Below are positions 1 through 26,680 of a stretch of 32,000 nucleotides of DNA, one piece after another. The position numbers and the translations under genes were made by a program. Under the pieces are notes generated by a model. The model was not told the origin of the DNA. It worked only from the letters and a program-made list of their open reading frames with translations, and made no database searches. Positions within the stretch are counted from its first letter, which is position 1. Each line of letters opens with the position of its first letter. Origin of the DNA: Acaryochloris thomasi RCC1774 (GTDB taxonomy: Bacteria; Cyanobacteriota; Cyanobacteriia; Thermosynechococcales; Thermosynechococcaceae); NCBI RefSeq assembly GCF_003231495.1, contig NZ_PQWO01000009.1:183314-215313 (forward strand), written 5' to 3'.

Positions 1-1760
1 ACGCATTCGTACATCACGCCGCTGCGTAAGGTGCCCTGCTCCACCGCGTTAGCAATACTGCCGCAGCGACGAATGGCGTTAATCGCCTTGAGGTGATGAC
101 GGTGCCCGCCATGAACGGAGACGCCCCGCTTCATATCCATCCCCAGGGAGGTGCCCATCATGGATTGCTCGATGTCGTGAACGGCGATCGCATTTCCCCC
201 CAGAAGCGCATGAACATACCCCTCTCGAATCAGCCTGTTGAGATGCTCACTACCGCCGGTATGGATGACCACCGGCCCCGCCGTCACCACGACTTTGCCG
301 CCCTGATCTCGAATCCGGCGCAAGTCCCAGGCAATTTGTTCGACGACTAATTCCACGCGACGCTCACTGGAAACGCCAGCGCCCATGAAGCCAAATTCTT
401 CCGATGCGCCTTTTTTGAGCGTTGTCGCTGTGCGCTTGGTGCGAATGCCCTCACTGCCGACCACAACTGATTCGCCGACCTGTAAATCTCTCAGTAGCTT
501 GCAGCGGGCAGCGATACCACTGTTAGTTTGAGTGATTGCGATCGCACCATCCATCCGCTGACCTTGAACCCTGATCCATTGCCCCTCGATCAAGACTTCG
601 GTGGGATAGATCGCCGTCACATAGAAATCATCCGGCGCAACGCCCGCCTGAACAACGGCCTCTAGCTCAGCATCAACCGCTTCTTCCGTGACGCTCACCG
701 CACCGAGGTCCACTAACTGCCCCATAATGTCGGCAATGACGTCCGTATCCGGGGCTGAAACCTTGACTTCTGCAGTCGAAATATCCTGACGCTGTTCGCC
801 CAGATCAAAATTTAGAACCTGGAAACTGCCGCCCCCCGCCACAATCGTATCCAGCGCTCGATTGACTAGACCCGTATCGAGTAAATGGCCTTCAAGATGA
901 ACAATACGACTTTGAATCGTGGAAGCCTGGGGCGAAGCGTGGCGCGGCTCTGTGGTCCTTAGAGTCAGACATTTGGCAGCCCCACCCGCCTTCAGAAATT
1001 CTGTGAGGGGCGTTTCAACCACGGTAAAGCCACAATCGCCGAGGCTTTGCTTGAGGCGATCGCTAACGTGGTTCATCACCACCACGCGATCAATATTTAC
1101 GGCGTTACAGGCAAAGGTAACGGCATCTACCTCCTCAACCGCAATTCGCTTCTCAGCCGGGACACGCCGCTCAATCAAGTGATTGGAGTAGGTGTCAAAA
1201 GCTGGCGGATAGTAGAGCAGATACCCGTCCGTAAGCGGACAAAAGCAGGTATCTAGGTGGTAGAAGCGCCGGTCGACTAACCGCAGGGACAGCACTTCTA
1301 CATCTAACCACTGGGCCAAATAAGGGTGGGAGTCCAGTTCAGAGCGAAACCCGTAGCCCGCCCATAGCCAGCCTCCGGCCCGATCGAGCAGCGCATCTCC
1401 GGCTCCTTCAAAGGGCAGGCTTTTGGGCAACGTATGCACGGTGTAGCCCTGATCTGTAAACCACTGTTGGAAATAGGGTTCTTCACCCTGCCGTTCAGGA
1501 TGGAAAAAACGACTGAGCACGACGGTGTTGTCTAGAACCAGCCCTGCATTAGCGGTAAAAACCATATCTGGCCACCCCGGTTGAGGCTCCACTAGATCAA
1601 CCGTCGCGTAGGTTTTCAAGACCCGATGCAGCTCATCCCACTGCAGTTCAGCACGGTCCCGCGACGAACGATGGATATTGCCCTCCATCCAAGGGTTGAT
1701 CACGTAATCGACATCATAATGATGCGGGGCACACATCAAAATTCGTACTGAATCGGTCAT
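1..1760 (-). CDS. argZ: Bifunctional arginine dihydrolase / ornithine cyclodeaminase (ArgZ/AgrE family), first ~586 codons; the 3' end lies beyond the left window edge
   Basis: Absent from the ORF track because it runs off the window. A reverse-strand ATG at 1760-1758 opens an uninterrupted frame to position 1. The N-terminus (MTDSVRILMCAPHHYDVDYVINPWMEG...MVFTANAGLV...FLKAGGAAKCLTL) matches the guanidino-group-modifying (amidinotransferase/DDAH-like) fold with a C-terminal catalytic Cys. It is followed by a LOR/SDH-like domain (HLEGHLLDTGLVNRALD...KVVVTAGPVVIHTGG...). Confidence 0.8.
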   Translation of the reverse strand, partial: MTDSVRILMCAPHHYDVDYVINPWMEGNIHRSSRDRAELQWDELHRVLKTYATVDLVEPQPGWPDMVFTANAGLVLDNTVVLSRFFHPERQGEEPYFQQWFTDQGYTVHTLPKSLPFEGAGDALLDRAGGWLWAGYGFRSELDSHPYLAQWLDVEVLSLRLVDRRFYHLDTCFCPLTDGYLLYYPPAFDTYSNHLIERRVPAEKRIAVEEVDAVTFACNAVNIDRVVVMNHVSDRLKQSLGDCGFTVVETPLTEFLKAGGAAKCLTLRTTEPRHASPQASTIQSRIVHLEGHLLDTGLVNRALDTIVAGGGSFQVLNFDLGEQRQDISTAEVKVSAPDTDVIADIMGQLVDLGAVSVTEEAVDAELEAVVQAGVAPDDFYVTAIYPTEVLIEGQWIRVQGQRMDGAIAITQTNSGIAARCKLLRDLQVGESVVVGSEGIRTKRTATTLKKGASEEFGFMGAGVSSERRVELVVEQIAWDLRRIRDQGGKVVVTAGPVVIHTGGSEHLNRLIREGYVHALLGGNAIAVHDIEQSMMGTSLGMDMKRGVSVHGGHRHHLKAINAIRRCGSIANAVEQGTLRSGVMYEC

Positions 1761-1878
1761 GGTTCACTCATTGAAAAATTTTTCTAGACTGAAAGCAACG
1801 GAGCGCTTCCCTTCATAAAAGGCCTCATTAATAGTAGCGATTCGTGCTCTGCTCGAATACGTCGAATCGCTGAATTTT

Positions 1879-1914
1879 CCCTTCTAAAGTCAAAAGTCTA
1901 TGACTTTAGAAGGG
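1879..1914. repeat. Perfect 14-bp inverted repeat CCCTTCTAAAGTCA-N8-TGACTTTAGAAGGG between the DUF2283 gene stop and the argZ start
   Basis: Arms at 1879-1892 and 1901-1914 are exact reverse complements. No U-tract follows on either strand, so it is not a canonical intrinsic terminator. It could be an operator or an RNA stem. Confidence 0.6.
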
Positions 1915-1953
1915 ATGACGATCTAAGTTGAGGGATAGGACAAGTGTTGTTGC

Positions 1954-2187
1954 CTAACTTTTTGCACTGGGCTGAGGTTTGTTAACGTTCGCTTCGCCCA
2001 CCAGATAGGCAATGGAGTATGGATTATCAACCTTTGTCGAAGCTTTTCTGATCTCTACGCCCACAACGGTACCGTCTTCGTCATAGTCTAAGACCAAGCC
2101 TGGTGCGATTTGCGTCGTTTCCTCAATGACGGTTGTAATAAAGGCAATTTGTAAAATATCTTTGTCTGGGTCGTAAACAACTTTCAT
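1954..2187 (-). CDS. DUF2283-family small protein
   Basis: 77-aa ORF with an ATG start. MKVVYDPDKDILQIAF...LVLDYDEDGTVVGVEI matches the DUF2283 pattern (Y-D-x-x-x-D-x-L-x-I ... D-x-D-x-x-G-x-x-V-G-I-E-I). Confidence 0.75.
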   Translation of the reverse strand: MKVVYDPDKDILQIAFITTVIEETTQIAPGLVLDYDEDGTVVGVEIRKASTKVDNPYSIAYLVGEANVNKPQPSAKS

Positions 2188-2458: not shown

Positions 2459-4171
2459 ATGTCGAAGCCTGAATGCATGTCTCCCGATGCTTCACTGCAG
2501 CATTCTACCGTTCGTCCCATCGGTGTATATGCCCTCACAGGACTGACGACGGATGGCGATCGCATCTTGGCCGTTGATACCGTTCGGGGCTACCTGCTCT
2601 CTATTGATCCACTCACGAATAACACCATTATCCTGAACCCTCATCAGGTTTCAGACTGGCTCGATGTCACGGGATTAACCCTGCACCAGGATACGTTCTG
2701 GTTTGCGAAGGATCAGGAGGTGTTTTGTTGCGATAGCCAAGGGCTGCTCGGAGACCATCGCGCGCCCCTAGAACAAAGGCATTTTGCTCACCTACCGTAT
2801 CCTGTCGCCGGGGTGGCCGTGGGGCCGTCAGCGATCTATGTGAGCTGTCAAAAGTCTGGCTATATCCATGTTTTTGACCCCGCCACCGGCAAACCGTTAG
2901 ATAAATTTCCTCAGCCCGGTGTGGGTTCTGAAACATTGACGGTGGCGGATGAACGGCTGTGGGTTTGCGATCGCGATGAGCAAACGGTTTATTGCCTCGA
3001 TCCCGCCACTGGAGCCATTCAGTACAGCGCTCTAACCCCCTTCAGCTCCCCTACAGGAATCGCATTTTATACACCGAAGAATCAAGTGCCCATTTGCTAT
3101 GTGGTGTACACCGATGAAGAACCCTATATACGGGATGATCCCAATGCCGAATCGCCCTATCAGCTGACCTTTCGCGATCGCACCTTTATCCATCCCCTGT
3201 GTCTCCACCACAACCCAACAGAACATTACACACTCTCCAATGGTTACTTGGTAGAGCTGTCCTACGTCGAAGAACTGCTCTCCATCGAAGACGTAACCCT
3301 CAATAACGTTGAGTGGCGCATTGCCCTACCTTCTGAGACACAGCGTCAGCGCATCCGCCATATCGAGCCAATCGGCCATCCGTTCACAATCGAAGAACAG
3401 AATGGGCAAAAGGTGGCCGTTTTCAAATTCGACCAGATCAAGCCCGATCAAGGCGGTCTTTTGGGCTGGAAAGCCACTGTTGAAATGTATAGCCTCAAGT
3501 ATTCTCTAACCCCCGACGATATCGACTCGAATCTGACACTTGCTCCCGAGCTGCAAGCGCAATATTTGGTCGATGACGATGATCTGGCAATGGATACGTT
3601 CACTATTCAGGCCGCTGCGAAAGAGGCCGCAGGCACAGAAACAAACGTGCTACGGAAGATGCTCAAAATCCGCAACTACGTCTACGATCGTCTTTCCTAC
3701 GGCATCCGGCCCAAAATTGATACGCCTGATGTGGCCTTGGAGCGGGGCATTGGCTCCTGCGGCGAATACGTCGGGGTCTTGCTCGCCCTAGCTCGCCTGA
3801 ACGGAATTGCCTGTCGCACCATTGGCCGCTACAAATGTCCTCAACATCCTGAATATCGCCATCTGCCCTTAGAGCCAGACTTTAACCATGTGTGGCTAGA
3901 GTTTTATGTTCCTGGGATTGGCTGGCTACCGATGGAATCCAATGTCGATGACGTCATCGATCGCGGCCCGTACCCTGAGCGTTTCTTCATGGGCCTATCC
4001 TGGTATCACACTGAACTGGGCAAAGGTATCCCCTTTGCAAAAATGAAGGCTGACAACAAGCCAGAAGGTCTTTCCATGGGAGACTTAGCCATCAATCATA
4101 TTCGCTTTAGGATTTTAGATGAGCTAATTCCTCAGCCTGTTGGCACAGACTCGGGAGTTGAGAGTCGTTGA
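2459..4171 (+). CDS. Transglutaminase-like (Cys-His-Asp core) protein with N-terminal beta-propeller-like repeats
   Basis: 570-aa ORF. The C-terminal core reads GIGSCGEYVGVLLALARLNGIACR...DFNHVWLEFYVPGIGWLPMESNVDD. The N-terminal half has repeated 'xxIYVxxxxxGxIxVxDPxTG' strand motifs. Confidence 0.8.
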   Translation: MSKPECMSPDASLQHSTVRPIGVYALTGLTTDGDRILAVDTVRGYLLSIDPLTNNTIILNPHQVSDWLDVTGLTLHQDTFWFAKDQEVFCCDSQGLLGDHRAPLEQRHFAHLPYPVAGVAVGPSAIYVSCQKSGYIHVFDPATGKPLDKFPQPGVGSETLTVADERLWVCDRDEQTVYCLDPATGAIQYSALTPFSSPTGIAFYTPKNQVPICYVVYTDEEPYIRDDPNAESPYQLTFRDRTFIHPLCLHHNPTEHYTLSNGYLVELSYVEELLSIEDVTLNNVEWRIALPSETQRQRIRHIEPIGHPFTIEEQNGQKVAVFKFDQIKPDQGGLLGWKATVEMYSLKYSLTPDDIDSNLTLAPELQAQYLVDDDDLAMDTFTIQAAAKEAAGTETNVLRKMLKIRNYVYDRLSYGIRPKIDTPDVALERGIGSCGEYVGVLLALARLNGIACRTIGRYKCPQHPEYRHLPLEPDFNHVWLEFYVPGIGWLPMESNVDDVIDRGPYPERFFMGLSWYHTELGKGIPFAKMKADNKPEGLSMGDLAINHIRFRILDELIPQPVGTDSGVESR

Positions 4172-4367: not shown

Positions 4368-4597
4368 TAAGTAGCGAGGCAGAATCAAGTTAAAGATCAG
4401 ATATTAGCAAATGCTCTACATGGCCCTCACCCCCAGCCCCTCTCCCAATGTTGGGAGAGGGGAGAAAGATCCCCTCGCTATCTGCCTTTCTCCCCCTTCG
4501 CCCAGTATTGGGAGAGGGCGGCTGGGGGGGGTGAGGGCCAATGCAACGATATTGAATTTAATCAGGAATCTTCAAGTCAATTAAGCCTATCTACTTA
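4368..4597. mobile_element. MITE copy A: 226-bp element at 4370-4595 flanked by TA/TA, with imperfect terminal inverted repeats AGTAGCGAGGC / AGTAGATAGGC
   Basis: It is collinear with the reverse complement of 19531-19702 over both ends. The centre is a G/C-rich palindrome (GGCCCTCACCCCCAGCCCC...GGGGTGAGGGCC). In this copy the centre is expanded by a second CCCAGTATTGGGAGAGGG sub-hairpin. Confidence 0.75.
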
Positions 4598-4624: not shown

Positions 4625-5557
4625 ATGTCAAATTCTTATTCCTTGATGATTCATGGTGGTTCAGGTTCTTTGGAGGATCTGAAATACGAGGCAGGCGAAG
4701 CCGAGTTCAGGGAGAGCATCAACACAATTCTAGAGAAGGGCCGTCATCGCCTAGAACAAGGAGATAGCGCCCTAGATGTGGTGGAGTACTGCGTAACGCT
4801 TTTAGAGAATGATCGACTTTATAACGCAGGGCGAGGATCTGTTCTCAATGCCAAGGGAAAAGTAGAAATGGATGCCGCGATCATGAGCGGGAGAGATCTA
4901 GGGGCAGGGGCAGTAGCCTGCGTTGAGCAGGTTAAAAACCCGATCGCTGTGGCGCGTCGCGTGCTGGAGAAAGGAGAGCATGTCCTGCTGATGGGGTATG
5001 GAGCATTAGAATTTGCAAAATTGTGCCAGCTCGAAACCTGCCCTGAGGATTATTTCATTACTGAAAACCGGATTCAGCAGTTAGCAGAGGCACAGGCTGC
5101 AGGGCGAATTACGTTAGACCATGAGCGCGTCAAGCCACACTCCGAAAAACTAGGAACAGTGGGAGCTGTTGCCCGCGATCTGCAAGGTGATCTTGCAGCG
5201 GCAACTTCTACGGGGGGATTGGTGAACAATCACTGGGGCCGAGTCGGGGATACGCCAGTCGTTGGGGCGGGCGTATATGCCGACAACCAAAGCTGTGCAG
5301 TCTCGGCAACTGGCTATGGAGAGGAGTTCTTGCGCACGGTGTTAGCGAAAACAATTTCTGTGTTTGTTGAATTTAAGGGCATGGATGCTGAGGCGGCAGC
5401 GAAGGCCGGGGTTGATTATCTAGTCAGGCGCGTGCAGGGAGAGGGTGGAGTGATTGTTATTGATACTGCGGGGCGTTGTGCTGCAGCTCAGTCAACGTCG
5501 GGCCTGATTTGCGGCTGGATTGAGATGGGGGGAGAAGCACACTGCACCTTAGGTTAA
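4625..5557 (+). CDS. iaaA: Isoaspartyl peptidase / L-asparaginase (plant-type asparaginase, Ntn hydrolase); candidate beta-Asp-Arg dipeptidase
   Basis: 310-aa ORF with an autoprocessing/nucleophile site (HSEKLGTVGAVARD), plus YNAGRGSVLN and GDTPVVGAGVYAD motifs typical of the family. Confidence 0.9.
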   Translation: MSNSYSLMIHGGSGSLEDLKYEAGEAEFRESINTILEKGRHRLEQGDSALDVVEYCVTLLENDRLYNAGRGSVLNAKGKVEMDAAIMSGRDLGAGAVACVEQVKNPIAVARRVLEKGEHVLLMGYGALEFAKLCQLETCPEDYFITENRIQQLAEAQAAGRITLDHERVKPHSEKLGTVGAVARDLQGDLAAATSTGGLVNNHWGRVGDTPVVGAGVYADNQSCAVSATGYGEEFLRTVLAKTISVFVEFKGMDAEAAAKAGVDYLVRRVQGEGGVIVIDTAGRCAAAQSTSGLICGWIEMGGEAHCTLG

Positions 5558-5734: not shown

Positions 5735-7687
5735 CTAAATCAGCTCTGGATCAGACATGATTTCTACTAAGGCAGGCCCTTGGTGCGTTAGCGCTTGAGC
5801 GATTGCGTCATCAAGTTCGTTCTGCTGTGTAACTCGGATACCGAACCCACCGCAATTCTGAGCATATTTAGAAAAATCAGGATTGTGCAATGAGGTTTGC
5901 CAGACATCCCATTCGCCTGCCCGCTGCTCTTTAGAGATTTTACCCAACTGATCGTTATGGAGCAGGATATGGGTAATGTTCATCTGGTATTTTACGGCTG
6001 TTGTAAATTCAGCCAAATATTGACCAAAGCCTCCATCTCCTGAGACTGAGATAATGCGGCGCTCATGGCCTGCGGCGGCCCAAGCTCCCATCGCAGCAGG
6101 GAAGGCAAATCCGATGGAGCCAAGGTAGCCCGACATTAAAACGGACTGGGCCTGACATTCAAAGTAGCGACCAAAGGAGTAGGTGTTGTTACCCACATCT
6201 ACGGCAATCACGGCATCGGCAGAGACTTGGCGGGTCATGGCAGCAAAGATAGAGGCTGAGTTTAACCCTTGGCCTCGATCATCGGCTTCGCGACGAGCTT
6301 TTTCAGTTCGCCAAATGGTCCAGTGGTCTTGAATTTGCGATCGCACATCCTCTGTATCCACCTGCCCTGTAAGCGCTGTATTCAACTGCTCCACCACAAC
6401 GCTGATTTCGCCCCAAACCGGCACCTCGACGGGATGGAATTTCCCTAGCGCCAGCGGGTCAAAATCCACTTGGATAATCGGCTTACCAGGATAAATTCCG
6501 GTGTGATTAGAAAACGAGGCTCCTAACACCAGCAACACATCAGCCTCATTCATGAACCAACTGGCAATGGGGGTGCCACTGCGTCCCAAGACTCCGCAGC
6601 CGAGGGGGTGACGGTCCGAGATCTGTCCTTTCCCCTTAAAGGTCGTGAGAATAGGCGCTCCCAATAGTTCTGCAAGTTCCGTAATAGCAGGCATATGGAA
6701 ACGGGCACCATGCCCAACAATGATCACCGGGCGGCGGGATTGCTTGAGGCGATCAATAGCCTCAAGCAACGACTCAGGCGGCGGCGCAATCTGTAAGGGT
6801 GTCATCCGTCCGGCGGGGTTAGAAGCAGGTACATCCACCGCAGGCTGCATCTGAACTTCATCAGGAAAAATCAGGTGAGAGACATTTCGCTCTAATAGGG
6901 CATGTTTGACGGCTAGGGTCATTAACTCAGCGTGTTGGCTGTGGCTGAGCACCGTTTGGCTCCAAGCAGCTACGCCACTGAAGGCGGCCTGTAAATCACA
7001 CTCTTGAAAATTGCCTGTGCCCAAAACCTGAGAATTGACCTGTCCCGTCAAGGCTAAAATCGGAGCGCGATCGACTTTTGCATCCCACATGCCCGTGAGT
7101 AGGTTTGTTGCACCCGGTCCGGCAATAGTTAAGCAGGCCGCAGGTTTACCTGTCAGCTTTGCGTAGGCTGAGGCGGCGAAGGCAGCAGCTCCTTCATGGC
7201 GAATGCCGATATAGGTGAGCTTACCTTGTACCTCTTGACGGCGGAGTGCGTCTGCGAGGCCTAAATTAGAATGACCCACCATGCCGAAGACATGGGTGAT
7301 ACCCCAGTTCACCATCGTTTCCGCCATCACATCACTCACGGTGCGGGTGTGGGGTTGTTCAACGGGTAAGCCGACGTATATGCCATCCGCACGCACCTCT
7401 ACTGGAAAGGTTGCGAGGGCATCATCAACGTCCAAAGCGTCGGGGGACTTGCCGGTTAGCGGGCAGTAGTCCCACCCGTGCCAAGGGCAGCGTAGGAGAC
7501 CGTTTTCAATGGAGCCCTCACCGAGGGGACCGCCTTGGTGGGGACAGCGATTATCGAGGGCACCATATTGGCCTTTGTAATGGGTTAAGGCAAGGCTTTT
7601 ATGGCCCGCCACTACAGTTTTGACACGGCTCTCAGGTAATTCGTCCAAACCTAGAACGCGGTACCACTGGGTTGTTATCTCCGGCAT
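5735..7687 (-). CDS. Rieske [2Fe-2S] domain fused to a thiamine-diphosphate enzyme (pyruvate oxidase / acetolactate synthase-like)
   Basis: Rieske motif CPHQGGPL-x-CPWHGW (CxH-X16-CxxH) in the first ~110 aa. It is followed by ThDP N-domain (GITHVFGMVGHSNLGL...IRHEGAAAFAASAYAKLTGKPAACLTIAGPGATNL) and a ThDP-binding motif (GDGGFGQY...LLHNDQLG). I prefer the ATG at 7687, which is preceded by GAGGAGAGAG, over the TTG at 7702 used by the ORF track. Confidence 0.85.
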   Translation of the reverse strand: MPEITTQWYRVLGLDELPESRVKTVVAGHKSLALTHYKGQYGALDNRCPHQGGPLGEGSIENGLLRCPWHGWDYCPLTGKSPDALDVDDALATFPVEVRADGIYVGLPVEQPHTRTVSDVMAETMVNWGITHVFGMVGHSNLGLADALRRQEVQGKLTYIGIRHEGAAAFAASAYAKLTGKPAACLTIAGPGATNLLTGMWDAKVDRAPILALTGQVNSQVLGTGNFQECDLQAAFSGVAAWSQTVLSHSQHAELMTLAVKHALLERNVSHLIFPDEVQMQPAVDVPASNPAGRMTPLQIAPPPESLLEAIDRLKQSRRPVIIVGHGARFHMPAITELAELLGAPILTTFKGKGQISDRHPLGCGVLGRSGTPIASWFMNEADVLLVLGASFSNHTGIYPGKPIIQVDFDPLALGKFHPVEVPVWGEISVVVEQLNTALTGQVDTEDVRSQIQDHWTIWRTEKARREADDRGQGLNSASIFAAMTRQVSADAVIAVDVGNNTYSFGRYFECQAQSVLMSGYLGSIGFAFPAAMGAWAAAGHERRIISVSGDGGFGQYLAEFTTAVKYQMNITHILLHNDQLGKISKEQRAGEWDVWQTSLHNPDFSKYAQNCGGFGIRVTQQNELDDAIAQALTHQGPALVEIMSDPELI

Positions 7688-7709
7688 AGTCTCTCTCCTC
7701 AATCAAAAT

Positions 7710-8441
7710 TTAGATTAGCAATAGCAAGCCGGTATAGAGCGCAATCCCACCGATAAAAGATCCGAAGCAGCTCTTCTTTTCGTCCGGCAATTCTCGCGCC
7801 AATATGTTGAGAATGAGGCTCCCGGCCAAAAAGGACCAGACAATCGAAACGGCTGCTTCATCAAAGCGAGTGGCTTGACCTGCGATCGCACCTACCATAA
7901 TTGCAGCTGTTAAGAGCCAGCGACCTAGTTTGTCATAGGGCTTTTTGTGGTGCTCCCGCAAGCTGTGATCAATGATGAAAAAGTGCAGAGCCACCGCGAT
8001 GAAATACAGAGCGCACTGCAGCAAGGTGTGGTCAGCGATATCTTGGAGCAGGTAACCGAAAATGATGTTCAGTACCGCAAAGGCTGAGATATGAATCCAA
8101 AATACAGCGGGGCTGGTAGTATCAACATCGTTTTCAAAGCGATTTTGCCGTCGAGAAGTGAGGGCCAGAATATCTAGGCCGTAAAACACAAGCAGTCCAA
8201 GGAGGGCCAAGATATAAACGTGATTTTCTAGGTAGGCCACGAAGGGCAAGGCGGAATGTTCTAGCTCTTCCTGGGCATGACTGAGTTCTGGAAAGATTTC
8301 TAGAAAGACATAGCCAATGGAAACGCCGCCGGCAAAGGACATCCAGCGATGTTCAGGGATAACGTTGACAACATTCAGTTTCGAGATGAAGGCATGCATC
8401 AACGCTAAGCCAATCGCTAAATAAAGACCGGGGCCTTCCAT
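7710..8441 (-). CDS. Polytopic membrane protein with His/Glu-rich motifs (possibly a ZIP-like metal transporter)
   Basis: 243-aa ORF with at least 6 hydrophobic helices and LHFFIIDHSLREHH and FPELSHAQEELEHS segments. It lies 22 nt upstream of the Rieske-ThDP gene on the same strand. The family assignment is tentative. Confidence 0.6.
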   Translation of the reverse strand: MEGPGLYLAIGLALMHAFISKLNVVNVIPEHRWMSFAGGVSIGYVFLEIFPELSHAQEELEHSALPFVAYLENHVYILALLGLLVFYGLDILALTSRRQNRFENDVDTTSPAVFWIHISAFAVLNIIFGYLLQDIADHTLLQCALYFIAVALHFFIIDHSLREHHKKPYDKLGRWLLTAAIMVGAIAGQATRFDEAAVSIVWSFLAGSLILNILARELPDEKKSCFGSFIGGIALYTGLLLLI

Positions 8442-8557
8442 GATGCATTGCCTCTAGATTTTGATCGGATGTTGATCGTGCTTTCACGAATTTACTGGAG
8501 AGTGTTGACGATTCAGCACTTTCCCCACAAGACTTATGCTCTGCAATCAACGAATTG

Positions 8558-10105: not shown

Positions 10106-10123
10106 TGCGTGTTTTCTAATTGT

Positions 10124-10870: not shown

Positions 10871-10926
10871 TACTCAGAATATGTGCCGTTTTTTCAATCG
10901 TTACCACTTGTGACAGCAGAACTAGC

Positions 10927-11340
10927 TTAGTAATTTACAGTAGGGTAAACCACTGTCAGATCATCATTTTCCCAATGAGTATCGGCATTGGCTTTACGAG
11001 TTTGCCCCTCCGCCTCCCATTGAGGTTTCGTGTCGCCTAGCCGACCGTTATAAAAAAGGTACAGCTTGTCATTTTCGACAATGTAACTCTTGGGATCAAC
11101 GGGAAAGGTTTTGCCTTCTGAAACCGCTACAGCACAAAAACCACCGTACTGCGGGGCATATTGCGAAGGTGCAGCATCAAATGTTGTCTTATTAGCTTGG
11201 CTACTGAAGTAGTAAATTGCACCGTTATGCGTTGAGGAGATTTCGGTGCTTCCCTCAACGGGTTGATTCTCGAAGTAAGAAACAGGGTCATATCCTTGAA
11301 TTGCAACCCCTGTTTCATTGAGATTTTGCAAGTGTGCCAT
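10927..11340 (-). CDS. YHS-domain protein
   Basis: 137-aa ORF. GYDPVSYF...YAPQYGGFCAVAV...KLYLFYN is the characteristic pattern of YHS-domain proteins. Confidence 0.75.
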   Translation of the reverse strand: MAHLQNLNETGVAIQGYDPVSYFENQPVEGSTEISSTHNGAIYYFSSQANKTTFDAAPSQYAPQYGGFCAVAVSEGKTFPVDPKSYIVENDKLYLFYNGRLGDTKPQWEAEGQTRKANADTHWENDDLTVVYPTVNY

Positions 11341-11454
11341 AAGTAGTACCCTTTCGATGACTAGTGCTAATTGAGCTGAATTTTGTGCACAGATACCATG
11401 CCTCTAGAGCATATTGAGCTAAAGAAGAGGATTACAGAGTATCGATGTATTGAG

Positions 11455-19200: not shown

Positions 19201-19291
19201 TCTGCGCCAACAGCTCCCGCGCAATGGCCTGGGTCTTTTCTTCATAGAGAGGCGGAGTCGTAAGTTCAGAACGAGACGGATTCACAGTCAT
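16268..19291 (-). CDS. putA: Bifunctional proline dehydrogenase / L-glutamate-gamma-semialdehyde (P5C) dehydrogenase PutA
   Basis: The ~1007-aa ORF has a PRODH barrel region (AIGSHNVRS...EFQVLYGMAD...AYLIRRLLENTANSSF). It also has an ALDH domain (FTGSQEVG, EMGGKNAIIVD, catalytic GQKCSACSR). I prefer the ATG at 19291 (MTVNPSR...) over the TTG at 19312 used in the track. Confidence 0.9.
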   Translation of the reverse strand: MTVNPSRSELTTPPLYEEKTQAIARELLAQTAEKRSLLAKIQDQFRWDDKLLNWTMDNPSLRVQLFRLIDCLPSLTTKAEMARHLQEYLSVPDVELPEALKRLLNFTASDSIPGQVAATTLSTSVATLAQKYIAGETLKQVLKTINRLRKQSMTFAIDVLGEAVITEKEAQSYLDQYLALMGQLTEVSRRWSSVPQIDAADGDDLAKVQVTLKLTAFYSQFDPLDVEGSQTTVCDRIRILLRRAQEVGADVHFDMEQYRYKDATLATLKSLLMEEEFCDRNNIGITLQAYLRDSYGDLKDLIEWAKQRGKPITVRLIKGAYWDQETIIARQNHWPTPVYNHKSSTDANFERMTQLLLENHEHLYAAIGSHNVRSQAHAISIAQTLNIPQRHIEFQVLYGMADNLAAALAKQGHRVRVYCPYGALIPGMAYLIRRLLENTANSSFLRQSLTETPIEELLAAPQWREGDQDGSEVEPTPMPVTTTATQIDPSADTNFAIATHRTQAESALTAVKQQLGQQYWPLIDGERVQTEKKVQSVNPSNPTEIVGTVGQINIAQAEDAIAAAKAAFQTWKRTSAKERADILRRAANLLEARRHELNAWMVFEAGKPLQQADVEVSEAVDFCRYYAAEMERLDPKIIYDVAGESDRYFYRPKGIVLVISPWNFPLAIPTGMTVAALVTGNCVLLKPAAVTSVIAAKLSEILVEAGIPKGVFQYVPGSGSTVGAHLVKHPAVQMIVFTGSQEVGCEIYANAAVLQPGQRHLKRVVAEMGGKNAIIVDESADLDQAVQGVVYSAFGYSGQKCSACSRVVVLASVYDAFVARLVEATKSLNVGIAADPGTKVGPVIDEAAQQRIRETIDKGKTEANLALQLPAPETGYFVGPVIFTEVDPHSSLAQEEIFGPVLSVIKAQSFEEGVAIANNTNFALTGGLYSRTPSHIEQAKTEFEVGNLYINRSITGAIVARQPFGGYKLSGVGSKAGGPDYLLQFLDPRTVTENIQRQGFAPIEGIE

Positions 19292-19440
19292 CAAACAACC
19301 TGCTTCATACAAACCTAGACAATCTTCGACAAACAGGTCGATATTTAATTGGTGTTTTAGAACTGGAGTGCCCCTCCAGCTTCATATCAATCTTAATAAC
19401 TGAAAAGGTATCCCGCACTCAGTCACGCCGTGTCTGCTGA

Positions 19441-20565
19441 TTAAATATCTAGGGGGCTACGAACGCTCAAAGTACCTTGATTGAGAACATGGGTATAAAT
19501 CATCGTGGTTTTTACGTCTTTGTGCCCTAATAAGTAGATAGGCTCAATTGACTTGAAGATTCCTGATTAATTTCAATATCGTTGCATTGGCCCTCACCCC
19601 CAGCCCCCCTCTCCCAATGTTGGGAGAGGGGGGCTGGGGGTGAGGGCCATGTAGAGCATTTGCTAATATCTGATCTTTAACTTGATTCTGCCTCGCCACT
19701 TAGCTCCTGAACGGTACGAATGTCATAGCCGTTTTGCCGCAAATGAGTCGCAAAGCTATGGCGAAGCGTGTGACAGCTTACTTTCTTAGCTATTTGAGCT
19801 TGGTGGGCTGCTTTCTTGAGCGAGTGCTGCAGAAAACCATCGCCTAAACGATGTCGCTGTTCTCTACCACTGCGAGGATCGGTGCTGCGCCGTTGAGCCG
19901 GAAAAACATATTGCCAAATCCATTCTTGTTCTGCGTTGGGATATTTGCGATCAAGGGCGTGGGGTAACGGTGCTATATCCTTGAGCTAGCTCATCTTGCT
20001 GCAGTTGCTTAACGTAGACGAGATGGGCCTGTAGGAGTTCAATGAGACTTTGTGGAAGAACGGTGATTCGGTCTTTATTACCTTTGGCATTCCGCACCAT
20101 CACTTGAGACTGACCAAAATCAAGATCTTTCACTCGCTAGGCGTAGCCCTTCTTTGACCCGCATCTCAGCTTAGCCAAGAGCTGTTGAATCCCCTCTAGT
20201 GCCTGCAATAAACGCTGAAACTCATCGGCCGTCAACACTGTAGGTAAATGCTTGGACTGTCTGGCCCGAACTACATCAATAGATTCGGCTAAAGGCTGTT
20301 TCAGTACCTGCCGATAGAGAACCAGCAAGGCACTGAGCGCTTGATTTTGGGTGGATGCTGCCACATCTCCGTTAACGGCTAAATGGGTGAAGAATGCCTT
20401 TACTTCGGCCTCGCCCATTTCTTGGGGATGCCGTTTATGGTGAAACAGAATAAAGCGCCGGATCCACCAAACATAAGTTTTTTCTGTGCGATGGGCATAG
20501 TGCTTGACTCGCAGTGCATCGCGCACCTGATCAAGCAGCTTTCTGGGCTTGGTGAGTTCTTCCAT
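19441..20565 (-). pseudogene. intI: Integron-type tyrosine recombinase (IntI family), disrupted by several frame lesions and a MITE insertion
   Basis: Pieces read on the minus strand are MEELTKPRKLLDQVRDALRVKHYAHRTEKTYVWWIRRFILFH..., [69 protein letters not shown]...[25 protein letters not shown] and [29 protein letters not shown]. The YP-A---W-WQYVFPA----DPRSG---RH segment is the IntI-specific insertion. Lesions are garbled box I with a stop at 20134-20136, a frameshift near 19966-19970, and the MITE at 19531-19702. Confidence 0.8.
19531..19702. mobile_element. MITE copy B: 168-bp element at 19533-19700 flanked by TA/TA, inserted in intI and inverted relative to copy A
   Basis: It has the same termini and flank-internal sequence as 4368-4597, in reverse complement. 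Its core at 19589-19648 is a perfect 29-bp-arm palindrome. Removing the element and one TA restores GAG CTA TTA GGG CAC (E-L-L-G-H) of the integrase. Confidence 0.8.
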
Positions 20566-20855
20566 ATGAGCTGGATAATAGCTATGGGAGGAAATTTATA
20601 TAGATGAATGCAGTCTAAATCGCTACCACTTCCTAGGCAAAAGCTTCTAAAACTCCTATGGAATGATGCATATAGCGATTTCAGGATTGGTTTCTATATT
20701 TAAACCTTACAAGATATGTATTCGTGAAGACTCAGGTGTTACTCTTCTACAAAAGCTGCCAAATTTAGACTTTAGCAGTTAATGACTCTAAATAAGCAAG
20801 CTTTTTAGTCCGCGAACTGCAGACTAAATATAGTCAGACCTTTGATATTGACATC

Positions 20856-21233
20856 ATGGATTTTGATAAATTTTCAATTAGTGAGTTTCAAAGGCGAGGT
20901 CTTAACAGTACTTCTTCTCGTAAGCTAGCAGATGAACTTGAGGAAGCTGCATTGCAAGAGATTCATAGTGTTCTAATGCCGACGATGAATAAAATCATTG
21001 ATGAGCTTAATAAACGTGGGCACCAACTGACATTTTATGAAGATCCGATACCAGGAGATATTTCATATAGACACAAAGATGGTGATGGAGAGATGGGGTT
21101 AAGAATTGCTGTTGACACTATCATTTCAACTGGATATTCTCACCTATATGACAACAATCAATCAGATGAAGAGATAATTGAAGAAGTGGTTGATAATTTA
21201 TGTAAGCTTATCGAGCCGACAGATCTAATTTGA
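20856..21233 (+). CDS. Hypothetical acidic protein (cassette-like ORF 1)
   Basis: 125-aa ORF with an ATG start, in an AT-rich segment. It points away from intI and has no motif I recognise. Confidence 0.5.
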   Translation: MDFDKFSISEFQRRGLNSTSSRKLADELEEAALQEIHSVLMPTMNKIIDELNKRGHQLTFYEDPIPGDISYRHKDGDGEMGLRIAVDTIISTGYSHLYDNNQSDEEIIEEVVDNLCKLIEPTDLI

Positions 21234-21277
21234 GAGTTTTTTTCGATTATCACAAAATCCATACTTTCTGAGCTATG

Positions 21278-21370
21278 GTTTAACTAGACCATACAGCGGG
21301 ACGCTCGAAATACCCTATTACTCAACGCTTTAAATTAATTCTCGCGCCCCTGATGGGGTAGCCGTTAGGC
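21278..21370 (+). other. attC-like recombination site (R'' GTTTAAC ... R' GTTAGGC)
   Basis: GTTTAAC (21278-21284) fits RYYYAAC and GTTAGGC (21364-21370) fits GTTRRRY. There is an imperfect internal stem with unpaired bases: CAGCGGGACGC at 21294-21304 pairs with GCGCCCCTG at 21343-21351. The next ORF starts 8 nt after R'. Confidence 0.4.
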
Positions 21371-21377
21371 ATATGCC

Positions 21378-21923
21378 ATGAATTTCGAAACGCAGATCGA
21401 AAAATGGGTTTCTGAGGACAGCTCAAGAATTCATGCTCTAGAGATAGCCTCCGAACTTAAACTCAACGATTGGTGTCTGGCTGCGGGGTTCGTAAGAAAC
21501 ATGGTTTGGGATAAACTCCATGATCGCCATTTCCCAACACCGCTCAATGACATCGATTTAATCTACTTCAATCGTGAAGAATCTTCGTTGGAAACCGACC
21601 AGGACTTGGAATCCATTCTTAAGACTAAATTGAACAAGCCTTGGTCTGTGAAAAACCAAGCGCGAATGCATCTAAGAAATAAAGATGCGTCATATACATC
21701 GACGGAAGATGCAATGAGTTATTGGGTTGAGGTGGAAACTGCAATTGGAGTCAGGTTAAGCCCTACGGACGGTCTGGAACTTGTTGCACCATTCGGACTT
21801 TCATCGCTGTTTTCAAGTACCGTTACCATTAACGATAAGCGCAGAAAGCCAAAAGAATTTTATGAGCGAGTCCGTTCAAAGAAGTGGCTGCAAACGTGGC
21901 CGAAGTTGAAAATATATGCCTAA
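21378..21923 (+). CDS. Nucleotidyltransferase-family protein (resembles the uncharacterised NTP_transf_6 type), cassette-like ORF 2
   Basis: 181-aa ORF. WCLAAGFVRNMVWDKLH...LNDIDLIYFN matches the GG-VRN-VWD ... DID-xYF pattern of that family, by eye. Confidence 0.6.
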   Translation: MNFETQIEKWVSEDSSRIHALEIASELKLNDWCLAAGFVRNMVWDKLHDRHFPTPLNDIDLIYFNREESSLETDQDLESILKTKLNKPWSVKNQARMHLRNKDASYTSTEDAMSYWVEVETAIGVRLSPTDGLELVAPFGLSSLFSSTVTINDKRRKPKEFYERVRSKKWLQTWPKLKIYA

Positions 21924-21968
21924 AAAGTCGCTGCAACGGACCCTTGCACGCTGAGCTAAGCGTTAGGC
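21918..21968 (+). other. attC-like recombination site (R'' GCCTAAA overlapping the stop codon ... R' GTTAGGC)
   Basis: GCCTAAA (21918-21924) is 6/7 complementary to GTTAGGC (21962-21968). The inner arms GTCGCTGCAA and TTGCACGCTGAG pair with bulged bases. At 51 nt it is slightly short for an attC. Confidence 0.45.
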
Positions 21969-22094
21969 TACTTTAATCGTCGGGAGGACAGTCTGAAAGC
22001 TAGTTATGGTGGAGCAGAGTCGGGTTATAGTGTGCGTTGAATATTTGCAGTCTAGCTACGTGTAAGCACTACATAGATCTTCAGAGGAGTTTTC

Positions 22095-22490
22095 ATGCTT
22101 CAAGGTAAAATTGTGCGTGTTGCTCGCCCAACTGACCAATTAGAGGAAGTCGTCAAATTCTACACAGAAGGTCTAGGGTTTCAAATTCTCGATCATTTTG
22201 AGAATCATGAAGGATTTGATGGTGTAATGCTTGGAATACCAGGAGAACCTTACCATTTTGAGTTTACACAGCAGCAAGAACACAGTGTTGGTCGTGCTCC
22301 AACGCAAGACAACCTGATTGTTTTTTACTTTCCAGATCAACAAGAGTGGCAATGTGCCGTTGATCAAATAAAAGTGAGTGGATATAAGCCTATACAGTCT
22401 TATAACCCTTATTGGGATAGAAGTGGAGTAACCTTTGAAGATCCAGATGGATACCGTATCGTCTTACAAAATGCTACTTGGGAGACATAA
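22095..22490 (+). CDS. VOC-family (glyoxalase/bleomycin-resistance/dioxygenase fold) protein, cassette-like ORF 3
   Basis: 131-aa ORF preceded by a GAGGAG RBS. VRVARPTDQLEEVVKFYTEGLGFQILDHFENHEGFDGVMLG...YHFEFTQ...VTFEDPDGYRIVL is typical of small VOC proteins. Confidence 0.8.
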   Translation: MLQGKIVRVARPTDQLEEVVKFYTEGLGFQILDHFENHEGFDGVMLGIPGEPYHFEFTQQQEHSVGRAPTQDNLIVFYFPDQQEWQCAVDQIKVSGYKPIQSYNPYWDRSGVTFEDPDGYRIVLQNATWET

Positions 22491-22602
22491 CGTGTTGGGC
22501 CAGCACCCAACAGCACCGTGCAAAGGATGCTTGAAACACACTTCTCGTTGGACATTTTTTATTCTGCTCACGCCCGTGCAGTGATCGGGGGTTGTGACAA
22601 TT

Positions 22603-22793: not shown

Positions 22794-25484
22794 TTAAGTC
22801 TTGATTCCATCCAGGCAGATATCTGCATTTTTAAAATCGGCTGATCGTGCCTCCTCTGGCTTTTCAACAATTGGATTTCGAGCCTTAATCAATGAGATTG
22901 TTCGACTAACATTATCAGGAAAAACAACGACAAGCGACTCTTTAGGGGCATTATCTAGTGCCCATATAATGGCCTCTGCTTCGTCTAGGCGAACAGAGTG
23001 GGAGGCTGCCGACTCAGCCCCGCCCTGACAGATGCCCTGAACAATTAGCTCTGCGGCATTACCGGGAGCGCGACCCCGCCCATCATCATCTTCTTTAACA
23101 ATAATCTGATCGAAGAACGTCGCCGAGAGTTTGCCGAGATCAATTAAATCTTGATCGCGGCGATCACCCGGTCCCCCGACCACGCCAATGGCAGGGCCAG
23201 TCCAGTTTTTGACAAAGCCCCCTACCGCTTTATATCCGGCTGGGTTATGGGCATAGTCCACCAGTACGTGAAATTGGCCGAGGTTGAAGAGATTCATACG
23301 TCCCGGCGTCTGCTGTTCTGAGGCTTTAAAACTGTGCAGAGCCGCCTGAATCTGCTTGACGGTCACGCCTTGGACATAGGCAGCTAGACTTGCCGCCAGA
23401 GCATTAGCAATCATGAACGGAGCCATTCCACCCAGCGTTACCGGAACTTGTTTAACGTGCTCAATACGGTGAACCTGATCCTGCTGCACAATGGTTAGGT
23501 AGCCTTGGTCGTAGACGGCAGCGATTCCACCCTGCTTGAGGTGCGATCGCAACACTTCATTTTCAGGATCCATCGAAAAATAGGCCACTTTTCCGGGCAC
23601 CTGCGCCGCCATTGCCGCGACTCGCGGATCATCAGCATTAAGAACAGCATAGCCATCGGGATGCACCGTCTCAGCGATCACTCCTTTGACCCTGGCCAAC
23701 TGATCAACGGTATTAATATCTCCTAGCCCCAAATGGTCCGCCGCCACGTTCAGAACGACTCCCACATCACACTGTGAAAAGGCCAAGCCCGAACGCAAAA
23801 TACCGCCCCGAGCTGTTTCAAGAACCGCAATATCCACCGTCGGATCCTGCAGAACCATTTGTGCACTCAGGGGGCCTGTGGTGTCTCCCTTCTCGACGAG
23901 GCGATCGCCGATATAGATGCCGTCGGTGGTCGTAAAGCCCACAGCATCATAAACCTGACGGCAAATATGGGCAATGAGTCGCGTGGTGGTGGTTTTGCCA
24001 TTGGTACCCGTCACCGCCACAATGGGCACCCGAGTCGGCGTCCCCGGCGGAAACAGCATCTTAATGATGGGTGCTGCCACATTACGAGCGCGGCCTTCAC
24101 TAGGTGCAATGTGCATCCGTAACCCGGGTGCTGCGTTAACCTCAACAATCACGCCATCTGCCTGGCTCAGGGGTTGAGTGATATCAGTTGTAATCACATC
24201 AATCCCTGCAATATCGAGGTCAATAATGCGAGATACCCGTTCCGCTAACCAAACAGTTTCTGGATGAATCTCATCGGTGCGGTCAATGGCAATGCCGCCC
24301 GTACTGAGGTTGGCTGTTGCGCGCAGGTAACCAATTTGATTGGGCTGCAAAACAGTGTCAACGGTGAACCCTTGACGGCTCAGCATGGCATCAGTGGCGT
24401 CGTCCAGTTGAATATGGGTGAGGATGTTGTCGTGCCCCGCGCCCCGACGATGATCTCGATTCTCTTGTTCAACAAGGGCTGCAATTGTGTCTTTACCATT
24501 GCCAACTACGTGAGCCGGGACGCGCTCTGCAACCGCGACAACTTTGTGGTTAACGACCAGAATGCGATGATCTCGGCCCTGATAGAAATGTTCGACAATC
24601 ACGCCTGTAGAAATATCCTTGGCTCGGTCGTAGGCAATTTCTACCTGTTCTTTTGACTGAATATCAATGGTGATCCCGCGACCGTGATTTCCATCTAAGG
24701 GCTTTATCACAATCGGATAGCCACCCAAGTCTTCAATCGCGTTATCTAATTCGCTAAAGGCATAAATCACTTTACCCAATGGAACCGGCGCACCCATACG
24801 CGTCAGAATTTCTTTAGTCCGTTCCTTATCGCAGGCTAATTCGACCCCCAAAACGTTGCTATGGGAGGTGAGTGCTGCCTGTAGTCGCTTTTGGTATTTG
24901 CCGTATCCAAGCTGATGGAGATCGCAATTCTCTAGCTCCATCCACGGGATATTGAGGGCTTCTGCCTCGCGGATCAGCGCCTCGGTGCTCGCCCCTAGGG
25001 CGGCTTCAGTACGCAGCTCAACCAAATCTTCTAAATCCGTTTGCAGTTCAGCTTCAGGGTAGGTGCCTGTTTCAGCCAAGCTCTTACATAAACGGTGGGC
25101 AGCTCGGGTGGCATAGCGACCGGCGGCTTCATTTTGATATTCAATTGCAACTTGATAAACGCCGGGGGTTACCGTCTCGCGGGTACGACCAAACCCCACC
25201 TCCATGCCCGCTAAAACCTGGAGTTCTAGCGCCACATGCTCTAGGATATGCCCCACCATGGTGCCTTCCTGGACCCGGCTGAGAAACCCACCCCGACACC
25301 CTGGCGAGCAGTGATGCTCTTCTAGGCTAGGTAAAACCGAGATTAATCCGTTGTAGAACCCTGGAATCGTATCAGACGGACGGTTAGCCAAGTCCTCCAG
25401 GTCCAGCCGAATGAGAATCAACTTTGCCCGACGAATACTCCAGTAGTTAGGGCCTCGAAGCGTTTGGGTTTGGAGAATTTTCAT
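22794..25484 (-). CDS. cphA: Cyanophycin synthetase (CphA1 type: N domain, ATP-grasp G domain, Mur-ligase-like M domain)
   Basis: 896-aa ORF starting MKILQTQTLRGPNYWS. The ATP-grasp region includes KPLDGNHGRGITI and VIVEVNAAPGLRMH. The Mur-ligase region has an intact P-loop (VTGTNGKTTTTRL), ETARGG, NVAADHLG and DYAHNPAG. Confidence 0.95.
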   Translation of the reverse strand: MKILQTQTLRGPNYWSIRRAKLILIRLDLEDLANRPSDTIPGFYNGLISVLPSLEEHHCSPGCRGGFLSRVQEGTMVGHILEHVALELQVLAGMEVGFGRTRETVTPGVYQVAIEYQNEAAGRYATRAAHRLCKSLAETGTYPEAELQTDLEDLVELRTEAALGASTEALIREAEALNIPWMELENCDLHQLGYGKYQKRLQAALTSHSNVLGVELACDKERTKEILTRMGAPVPLGKVIYAFSELDNAIEDLGGYPIVIKPLDGNHGRGITIDIQSKEQVEIAYDRAKDISTGVIVEHFYQGRDHRILVVNHKVVAVAERVPAHVVGNGKDTIAALVEQENRDHRRGAGHDNILTHIQLDDATDAMLSRQGFTVDTVLQPNQIGYLRATANLSTGGIAIDRTDEIHPETVWLAERVSRIIDLDIAGIDVITTDITQPLSQADGVIVEVNAAPGLRMHIAPSEGRARNVAAPIIKMLFPPGTPTRVPIVAVTGTNGKTTTTRLIAHICRQVYDAVGFTTTDGIYIGDRLVEKGDTTGPLSAQMVLQDPTVDIAVLETARGGILRSGLAFSQCDVGVVLNVAADHLGLGDINTVDQLARVKGVIAETVHPDGYAVLNADDPRVAAMAAQVPGKVAYFSMDPENEVLRSHLKQGGIAAVYDQGYLTIVQQDQVHRIEHVKQVPVTLGGMAPFMIANALAASLAAYVQGVTVKQIQAALHSFKASEQQTPGRMNLFNLGQFHVLVDYAHNPAGYKAVGGFVKNWTGPAIGVVGGPGDRRDQDLIDLGKLSATFFDQIIVKEDDDGRGRAPGNAAELIVQGICQGGAESAASHSVRLDEAEAIIWALDNAPKESLVVVFPDNVSRTISLIKARNPIVEKPEEARSADFKNADICLDGIKT

Positions 25485-25615
25485 AGGTTATGGAGAGTGC
25501 TTGAGCCGATTCCAGCAGTTTAATGACAGTCTTGAGCGTTTAAATAGGCGTTGTTAAGGACTCAACTCAAGATTAATTTGTTTACGAACGCTATTATTTG
25601 TTAACCCCAAGTTCT

Positions 25616-25629
25616 GTAGTTTTAGCTAC
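25616..25629 (-). promoter_or_regulatory. Candidate NtcA-type box GTA-N8-TAC in the cphB-cphA spacer
   Basis: GTAGTTTTAGCTAC matches the GTAN8TAC consensus exactly and lies 132 nt upstream of the cphA ATG. The downstream -10 candidate (AATAAT/TAATAG region) is only approximate. Confidence 0.4.
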
Positions 25630-25870
25630 ATATGTGCGTAGTAGATTAGTAGTCTCAGGCTTTCTTAGGTCTGCTTTGAAGCACTCAAATCCATTCAGGG
25701 CTTGAGGTATCGTAACATGCTGAAATAGCCGATAAATCAGACTATTTCAATCCTATATAAGTGGCTTTGCGGGTTTTGGCCATTCGTACAGGACTATCAG
25801 ATTAACCGCATCGAGCAATTTCCCATGATTACAAATCTCGCTCTAATTCTGGGACGCTTAAAAAGCTGCG

Positions 25871-26680
25871 CTAAGACGGCAAAACAGTCCGATGCTGATA
25901 GTGGTAGAGATCGCCCCGGTTTAGAATGTGCACGGTTAGATTGTGCAAACTGAGGGGAGACGTTTCGTCTGACTCTGGGTGATTCGTATAGGCCAATTCC
26001 CCTGGATCGATGACGGTGATCGACCCCTTACCCAATATTTCAAAGCTCCCATCCCCTCTGAAGGCAGCACAGGTATCTTCGTCAATGCCCATCCCTAGCT
26101 TCTCAGGATACGTTGCGATCGCACTGAGTAATCGAGCCATCCGATTGCGATTATGGAAGTGCTGATCCACCAACACTTCAGGAATAATTCCTAACCCATC
26201 CATCAAATCGACGAGTGAGCGGTTGGGAGATTCACCACTGCTGCCCCCCGAGATCATTTTTTCGCCCATAATGGCAGCGCCAGCGCTGGTTCCAGCAAGG
26301 ACAAGCGAGCCCAGATGAAGCCGCTTTCTGATAGCTGCAATAAATTTACTATCGTTGATGAAGTGGAAAAGACGAACCTGATCGCCACCTGTCACAAAGA
26401 CACCCGTACAGTCATCTAAGATATCGAGCCAGCGCAGCTCATCACACTCATGGGGTCGCCGAATATCAAGAACCTCAACCCGGTGCGCCCCCATTCTCTT
26501 GAAGATCTGGTAATAGCGATCGCCGACCGCACTGGGTTCTTGTGAAGCGCAGGGAATAATGCCGATGGTTGCTAGCTTTCCGCCTGCACTCTCGAAAAAG
26601 GCGGTTAATATACTGCACTCATTGACCTTATCTTCTGCTCCACCAATAACCATAATTGGGTACTGGGTCGGAATTACCAT
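25871..26680 (-). CDS. cphB: Cyanophycinase (peptidase S51)
   Basis: 269-aa ORF. It has IMVIGGAEDK, VFVTGGDQ, the nucleophile motif LAGTSAGAAIMG and VDQHFHNRNRMARL. It lies upstream of cphA on the same strand, the classic cphBA order. Confidence 0.9.
   Translation of the reverse strand: MVIPTQYPIMVIGGAEDKVNECSILTAFFESAGGKLATIGIIPCASQEPSAVGDRYYQIFKRMGAHRVEVLDIRRPHECDELRWLDILDDCTGVFVTGGDQVRLFHFINDSKFIAAIRKRLHLGSLVLAGTSAGAAIMGEKMISGGSSGESPNRSLVDLMDGLGIIPEVLVDQHFHNRNRMARLLSAIATYPEKLGMGIDEDTCAAFRGDGSFEILGKGSITVIDPGELAYTNHPESDETSPLSLHNLTVHILNRGDLYHYQHRTVLPS

Follow-up and report, generated by a model that had tools for sequence, protein, structure and literature searches.

A cyanophycin and arginine-catabolism gene cassette in Acaryochloris thomasi RCC1774 and a candidate propeller-transglutaminase of the pathway

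Cyanobacteria use cyanophycin as a main nitrogen store, and the polymer is also a product of biotechnology; the enzymes that handle it (CphA, CphB, and a dipeptidase) are regarded as known. Here we analyze 32,000 nucleotides of the Acaryochloris thomasi RCC1774 genome (5.93 Mb), the terminal part of one contig (NZ_PQWO01000009.1, contig C9 below; positions 183,314 to 215,313), which we call the window. It contains genes for the synthesis and breakdown of cyanophycin, genes for arginine catabolism, and a gene, tgl, for a protein with a beta-propeller and a transglutaminase-like core. On balance we lean toward the view that tgl encodes an undescribed cyanophycin enzyme that cleaves or transfers amide bonds, present in ~98% of cyanophycin-synthesizing cyanobacteria and in some Proteobacteria, and that cassettes such as this one let lineages regain or swap the pathway in one step. 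The genes of the block are:

1..1760, minus strand: argZ/agrE, predicted arginine dihydrolase and ornithine cyclodeaminase, 700 amino acids; runs 342 bases past the left edge of the window
1954..2187, minus strand: DUF2283 small protein, 77 amino acids, a conserved cassette passenger (PF10049)
2459..4171, plus strand: tgl, five-bladed beta-propeller and transglutaminase-like core with Cys434/His477/Glu493; candidate cyanophycin-pathway enzyme (PF01841)
4625..5557, plus strand: iaaA, isoaspartyl dipeptidase (plant-type asparaginase) of a cassette-specific clade (PF01112)
16268..19291, minus strand: putA, proline dehydrogenase and pyrroline-5-carboxylate dehydrogenase (PF18083, PF01619, and PF00171; TIGR01237 above cut-off)
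22794..25484, minus strand: cphA1, cyanophycin synthetase (TIGR02068, 1210 bits, cut-off 850)
25871..26680, minus strand: cphB, cyanophycinase (TIGR02069, 293 bits, cut-off 127)

Pathway genes in the window

An earlier note on this DNA had named five pathway enzymes, four of them on one strand. All five are confirmed in position, family, and strand (argZ, putA, cphA, and cphB minus, iaaA plus), and argZ, putA, and cphB are each single-copy in the genome. The proposed orthologies also stand: ArgZ, PutA, CphA, and CphB score above curated cut-offs, and IaaA belongs to PF01112 and has the nucleophile. ArgZ/AgrE (NF052231, 1107 bits, cut-off 1025) combines an amidinotransferase-fold domain with LOR/SDH and ArgZ C-terminal domains in one fusion and matches Anabaena Alr4995 (phmmer E 2e-292) and Synechocystis Sll1336 (3e-274), so it is not a different amidinotransferase-fold enzyme, a possibility that the note had raised. 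We predict arginine dihydrolase activity and ornithine cyclodeaminase activity for it based on orthology. PutA contains PutA_N, Pro_dh, and Aldedh domains within a single chain. CphA1 has N, G, and M domains with an intact Cx19HxxEH primer site and P-loop, and CphB is an S51 family protein with the GTSAG nucleophile motif.

The closest solved relative of IaaA is E. coli EcAIII, and the autocleavage nucleophile Thr and the aligned substrate-site residues are present. The protein scores below the E. coli-type equivalog cut-off (NF007589, 249 vs 567 bits) and is not of the usual cyanobacterial type: other cyanobacterial family members are ~36% identical, and the nearest non-cyanobacterial relatives are in the Gammaproteobacteria (56-58%). 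The genome encodes a second iaaA (G000:C15:105957-106883), 63% identical, from a clade that was never seen beside cyanophycin genes and that is retained in two relatives lacking the pathway (G002 and G013).

Based on family membership and published pathway work (PMC8262935, PMC10206079), CphA would store nitrogen as cyanophycin, CphB would turn it into beta-Asp-Arg, IaaA would split this dipeptide into Asp and Arg, ArgZ would convert Arg to proline, 3 NH4+, and CO2, and PutA would convert proline to glutamate. The idea that the complete route lies in one neighborhood holds for the five enzymes, which are encoded within ~27 kb, and not for the probable nickel-cofactor genes. NCBIfam labels the ArgZ cyclodeaminase domain as nickel-pincer-dependent, and larB, larC, and larE, the makers of this cofactor (see PMC13524815), are away from the block on contigs C3, C2, and C8; the route is therefore probably not self-contained. 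With two strands and two insertions, the block is also not one operon. The earlier gene list was right about the five enzymes and omitted tgl and the DUF2283 gene, the members that make the block informative.

The cassette in other genomes and its history

We searched 31 relatives and 251 class-wide cyanobacterial genomes and then fetched the loci. The genes argZ, iaaA, putA, cphA, cphB, and tgl lie within 13-19 kb in six genomes from three other families (G099, G140, G188, G129, G149, and G209). In G099 (family f29) the order is iaaA, tgl, argZ, cphB, cphA, putA in 13.3 kb, with only two small conserved open reading frames (ORFs) between; G188 and G224 (f15) have the same order, and no large gene is found inside the cassette in any of these three. 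The f9 genomes (G140, G129, G149, and G209) have all six genes in 14-19 kb. Five of the six are clustered in G012, G016, G217, and G232, putA is directly or almost directly behind cphA in 14 other genomes, and many others retain the halves argZ-tgl-iaaA and cphB-cphA-putA. Named carriers include Altericista sp. CCNU0014, Phormidesmis priestleyi ULC027, and other Phormidesmis bins. In the cassette, tgl and iaaA point the same way and are separated by a median of 54 bp. As a control, tgl adjoins cassette-type iaaA in 15/18 loci, and no cassette gene is nearby in 62 loci of other, related iaaA types.

The DUF2283 ORF sits between argZ and tgl in 17/17 cassette loci, and its close type (E<=1e-25) occurs in 33/251 genomes, 27 of which are cassette genomes. 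A second small ORF in this spacer, which we take to be DUF4327-like, is present in 15/17 cassette loci and was not found in the present genome. We ruled out RNA genes as the conserved argZ-tgl stretches, which are these two small ORFs instead; an Rfam scan gave tRNA-Gly only.

It could be argued that the adjacency is a chance by-product of rearrangement, given genes on both strands and unrelated insertions between them. Against this, the chance that three unlinked loci of a 5.93-Mb genome would all lie 27 kb or less from cphBA is ~8e-7, and the same genes, often in the same order, are clustered in other families. The conserved synteny refutes chance adjacency, which we consider extremely improbable, and the cluster is not the one-off that the earlier note had allowed for. 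That the cassette is conserved is, in our judgment, practically certain. The region is probably a decayed copy of a compact cassette (argZ, DUF2283, usually DUF4327, tgl, iaaA, cphB, cphA, and putA) that is mobile as a block between cyanobacterial families; here it was later stretched to 27 kb by a six-gene redox string, a cphA duplicate that has changed place, and a defunct integron (listed below).

Parts of this arrangement are already known. Bacterial clusters of cphA1, cyanophycinase, and iaaA, iadA, or cphZ have been described (Sharon and Schmeing 2023, PMC10206079; Sharon et al. 2023, PMC9974463), with iaaA clustered with the synthetase and cyanophycinase in 49/153 genomes having all three. 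These clusters resemble the cassette in bringing synthetase, cyanophycinase, and dipeptidase genes together; in the available portions of both surveys, argZ, putA, horizontal movement of the block, and the transglutaminase-like gene are not covered, and the gaps to iaaA in the present genome exceed their 5-kb definition. The cyanobacterial arginine route through AgrE/ArgZ and PutA is also known (summarized in PMC8262935) and uses the same enzymes to go from arginine to proline to glutamate. Its genes are scattered in the complete chromosomes that we checked outside the lineage, whereas here they are linked to cphBA. We did not find the union of cph cluster and arginine route in a mobile cassette in the searchable literature. 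The cassette represents a storage pathway gained and lost as one unit, and it offers a natural 13-kb module for expression.

The gene trees of cphA, tgl, argZ, putA, and iaaA each place the cassette genomes in one clade (Shimodaira-Hasegawa-like approximate likelihood-ratio support 96-100). The clades span families f1, f9, f15, f21, and f29 (putA without f21), and their internal order matches in part between trees. The nearest sampled relative is f11 for cphA and putA and f11 with f18 for tgl. On the rpoB tree the cassette genomes need 11 changes, and approximately unbiased (AU) tests reject a single rpoB clade even with pathway-lacking kin allowed in (p 5e-10); for cphA they reject monophyly of f1 and of f15 (p 2e-107 and 2e-8). 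Because five concordant gene trees conflict with rpoB, the block very likely moved horizontally between lineages, and the earlier label of an 'island' is apt. The cassette genes are host-like in GC content and in density of the highly iterated palindrome HIP1, which fits an old transfer. No conserved mobility gene was seen in the cassette flanks.

The entire pathway is absent from the sisters of several carriers (G086, G110/G121, G013, and G002, the last 83% complete), and G012, G016, G018, and G026 retain a non-cassette putA or argZ. These patterns fit gain, exchange, and loss of the block as a unit. On rpoB, a 7.1-Mb genome that has no cyanophycin genes is the sister of the present genus, and Acaryochloris marina is mostly without them, WB4 being its one strain with cphA (PMC8949462). 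In G120 (L270), G138, G185, and G207, argZ is present and cphA and tgl are absent; the G120 argZ is sister to the cassette clade.

The alternative to horizontal movement would be an old cluster that was inherited vertically, without any transfer, and came apart in most lineages, or else an ancient duplicate that was lost differentially. The argZ-putA-cphB-cphA clusters outside the clade in G060 and G042 would suit it, as would the weak support for deep rpoB nodes. It is hard to square with a cross-family clade shared by five gene trees and including G099, whose family branches next to Gloeobacter on rpoB, or with the AU tests, which reject vertical topologies; in addition, no sampled genome has both copy types of cphA, tgl, argZ, or putA. 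We regard vertical origin as very unlikely.

A number of points count against a single mobile cassette. No linkage is seen in two clade members (G026 and G108), and three genomes that do have it (G045, G060, and G042) fall outside the clade. The cassette group was picked partly by similarity, rpoB is the sole species marker, the trees are quick LG+G4 trees, and they do not fix the direction of transfer. Linkage was judged among the matches listed, the 51-55 weakest matches per search being without coordinates.

Outside the cassette lineage, pairs among cphA, tgl, and argZ are at least 37 kb apart in 31 complete or near-complete chromosomes, and no cph gene was found beside tgl in 56 cyanobacterial metagenome loci. 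Two separate clusters do occur there, one in G060/G042 and one in G045, the latter an independent cyanobacterial linkage of tgl. Family f25 has an independent argZ-putA-cphB-cphA cluster, outside the cassette clade and without adjacent tgl (L213:3101-13327 and L290:285-10474).

The propeller-transglutaminase gene

Across the 251 cyanobacteria, cphA is matched in 205 and tgl in 201; both are present in 201 genomes, neither in 46, cphA alone in four, and tgl alone in none. The gene is discordant with cphA in four genomes and with argZ in 12, and where cphA and argZ disagree it goes with cphA in 9/10. Of the 46 double-negatives, 27 belong to two families of picocyanobacteria-like and small genomes, and the other 19 are spread over at least eight further lineages. 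A profile re-check of five double-negatives found no cphA, no cphB, and no full-length tgl, and four of the five retain an unrelated transglutaminase-like ORF of ~300 amino acids. Independent pairs on rpoB are concordant in 6/6 cases (p 0.03). We rejected mere genome streamlining as the explanation of joint loss, which includes genomes of 5.1-10.6 Mb, four with another transglutaminase-like gene. Gloeobacter violaceus gll4323 is a member of the family, and a search of the phylum's 74 sampled non-photosynthetic members gave no full-length orthologue.

The gene also occurs with cyanophycin genes in a second phylum. In Paraburkholderia, a homologue of ~28% identity is flanked by cphA on one side and by one or two cyanophycinase genes on the other (cphA>tgl><cphB); both cph clusters of P. 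sp. IMGN_8 and 12/13 related metagenome loci show this arrangement. The CphA of this type is 41-44% identical and falls outside the cyanobacterial clade, which points to a second, old tgl-cph association. In these clusters tgl occupies the slot of the dipeptidase gene in other bacteria, and one locus only shows iaaA. A Victivallales genome has a tgl homologue away from its cphA and cphB. One survey gives cphA for ~6% of bacterial genomes (PMC10206079). Two Paraburkholderia cph clusters contain stand-alone ORFs for the CphA N domain (L328:9201-10001 and L329:5220-5699); the first retains HxxEH and overlaps the annotated tgl start. A role of tgl as a replacement primer-maker was rejected, as the HxxEH site is present in cyanobacterial and Paraburkholderia CphA.

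The structure model of Tgl has a mean predicted local distance difference test score (pLDDT) of 94.8; a first model from a shallow alignment (pLDDT 58.5) was discarded. Residues 258-558 match a putative cysteine protease of Cytophaga hutchinsonii, PDB 3ISR (VIA Z 19.9, root-mean-square deviation (rmsd) 3.6, 257 aligned; Foldseek E 6e-12). The two proteins share the PF01841 core fold and the Cys and His of the triad; they differ in that identity is 16% and that Tgl adds an N-terminal propeller and has Glu at the usual Asp position. Residues 13-254 form a five-bladed propeller like those of bacterial and plant glutaminyl cyclases (PDB 3NOK, 3MBR, and 2IWA; Z 20-21, rmsd 2.5), a comparison by fold at 11-16% identity. 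A PDB sequence search with Tgl found nothing close. Residues C434, H477, and E493 are invariant across 55 close sequences, and position 493 is Asp in 35/51 distant ones. The close sequences also share many invariant acidic residues, candidates for contacts with the side chains of arginine. The sequence shows no evident signal peptide. Enzymes of the transglutaminase-like fold form or break amide bonds via a thioester, and propeller folds are common and imply no function.

Taken together, tgl is very probably tied functionally to cyanophycin. We predict that Tgl would be a cytoplasmic Cys-His-Glu hydrolase or acyl-transferase whose targets would be polymer amide bonds poorly served by CphB and IaaA (those of side chains still attached to it, bonds inside the backbone, or those of non-Arg units), and that its propeller would bind the polymer or a partner. 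Its position in the dipeptidase slot in Paraburkholderia-type clusters and beside iaaA in the cassette favors the polymer, or units that are poorly handled, as substrate. Direct action on the polymer or its fragments is the candidate activity that we incline to, somewhat better than an even chance; action on a protein of the pathway is doubtful, and an unrelated role is unlikely. Tgl is less likely to be the main dipeptidase for free beta-Asp-Arg, because iaaA adjoins it and because the Anabaena all3922 mutant reportedly accumulates the dipeptide despite tgl, which 15/15 sampled genomes of Anabaena's family carry.

Another reading keeps the cassette real and mobile and has tgl serve some other nitrogen-related process (for example on a protein substrate), so that it merely travels along. 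The DUF2283 gene shows that the cassette carries passengers, and tgl is unlinked in most cyanobacteria. Yet tgl tracks cphA and not argZ, disappeared along with cphA even where ~2 Mb separates the two genes in congeners (G101 vs G011), and lies between cphA and cphB in a second phylum, that of Paraburkholderia, with its divergent CphA. We find a mere traveller quite unlikely.

Other evidence weighs against tgl as a cyanophycin enzyme. Four cphA genomes, one of them complete (G071), are without tgl, so the gene is not essential; they would equally suit a traveller. In E. coli, CphA1 needs no partner to make cyanophycin (PMC9262961). Cassette lineages are part of several of the independent pairs, and there linkage accounts for joint loss by itself; several distant homologues have no cph neighbors. 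The role of tgl is a prediction from sequence, synteny, co-occurrence, and modeled structure.

We found no report of a link between tgl and cyanophycin in the open-access literature, the scope of our search. The occurrence of tgl in 201/205 cphA genomes and in 0/46 without cphA, together with its place between cphA and cphB elsewhere, points to a step so far missed, with a possible bearing on chain length, on composition, or on the turnover of granules.

Paralogue, regulation, and other features

The window contains the following further features:

4368..4597, strand not assigned: repeat resembling a miniature inverted-repeat transposable element (MITE); brings the gap between tgl and iaaA to 453 bp (the median in 14 loci is 54 bp)
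5735..11850, minus strand: inserted redox string of six genes (Rieske-thiamine diphosphate (ThDP) enzyme, membrane protein, GMC oxidoreductase, YjeF-N, YHS, and DM13); not cassette
12619..16014, minus strand: cphA paralogue, 1131 amino acids, 70% identical over 734 amino acids to cphA
19430..22490 (left end approximate), strand not assigned: broken integron integrase with three small ORFs, an insertion that separates cphA from putA; not cassette
25588..25629, minus strand: NtcA-type promoter before cphA, with GTA-N8-TAC at 25616-25629, a 22-base spacer, and a TAN3T box at 25588-25593

The remodeled cphA paralogue reported earlier is confirmed. Its ATP-grasp domain is intact, its primer-site motif and M-domain P-loop are lost, and a tail replaces the Mur lid. 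In 6/6 paralogues compared, the primer-site motif, the P-loop, and ETARGG are altered, the Mur lid is replaced, and the G-domain motifs are retained. The paralogues form one clade nested in the cassette cphA clade, and three genomes have the paralogue directly before cphB. The protein resembles CphA2 (PMC10273328) in its inactive N domain, damaged and truncated M domain, and intact G domain; it differs in being a recent duplicate of the cassette's own CphA1, not a descendant of the CphA2 lineage, and in its variable C-terminal tail. No true CphA2 was found in the genome, so by sequence the paralogue appears to repeat the CphA2 pattern in a genome without CphA2.

A strict NtcA-type site lies upstream of cphA in 10/25 related loci (2.6 expected from shuffles). 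Such sites are not enriched before cphB (4/24 loci), and none was found within 400 bases upstream of putA (0/15 loci) or tgl (0/14 loci). Co-regulation of the block is thus partly supported as a prediction, by the NtcA-type site before cphA. A similar GTA-N8-TAC lies 180-360 bases upstream of argZ in the argZ-tgl spacers of G003, G016, G099, G232, and G239 (for example L014:6281-7416); it is missing in the present genome, as is the DUF4327-like ORF.

Homologues of the redox string were beside cassette genes in none of the loci fetched. Its terminal gene (5735-7702, minus strand) encodes a Rieske [2Fe-2S] domain and a full pyruvate-oxidase-like ThDP enzyme in one fusion. The three ORFs at the broken integrase are cassette-like, low in GC, and HIP1-free, and the congener G003 has an intact integrase ORF of 323 amino acids at the same site, directly before putA (L015:106-1077). 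A second copy of the MITE-like repeat lies inside the dead integrase (19531-19702), and blastn with the tgl-iaaA gap gives 21 matches in the genome.

The right flank contains tRNA-Gly(CCC) (26841-26913, minus strand) and menE with an ABC-2 transporter pair (27004-31079, plus strand), a flank not seen beside the cassette in relatives. Just after cphA, a fragment at 22474-22710 (minus strand) resembles the start of the dihydroorotase gene pyrC and is 68% identical over 41 amino acids to a gene on contig C10.

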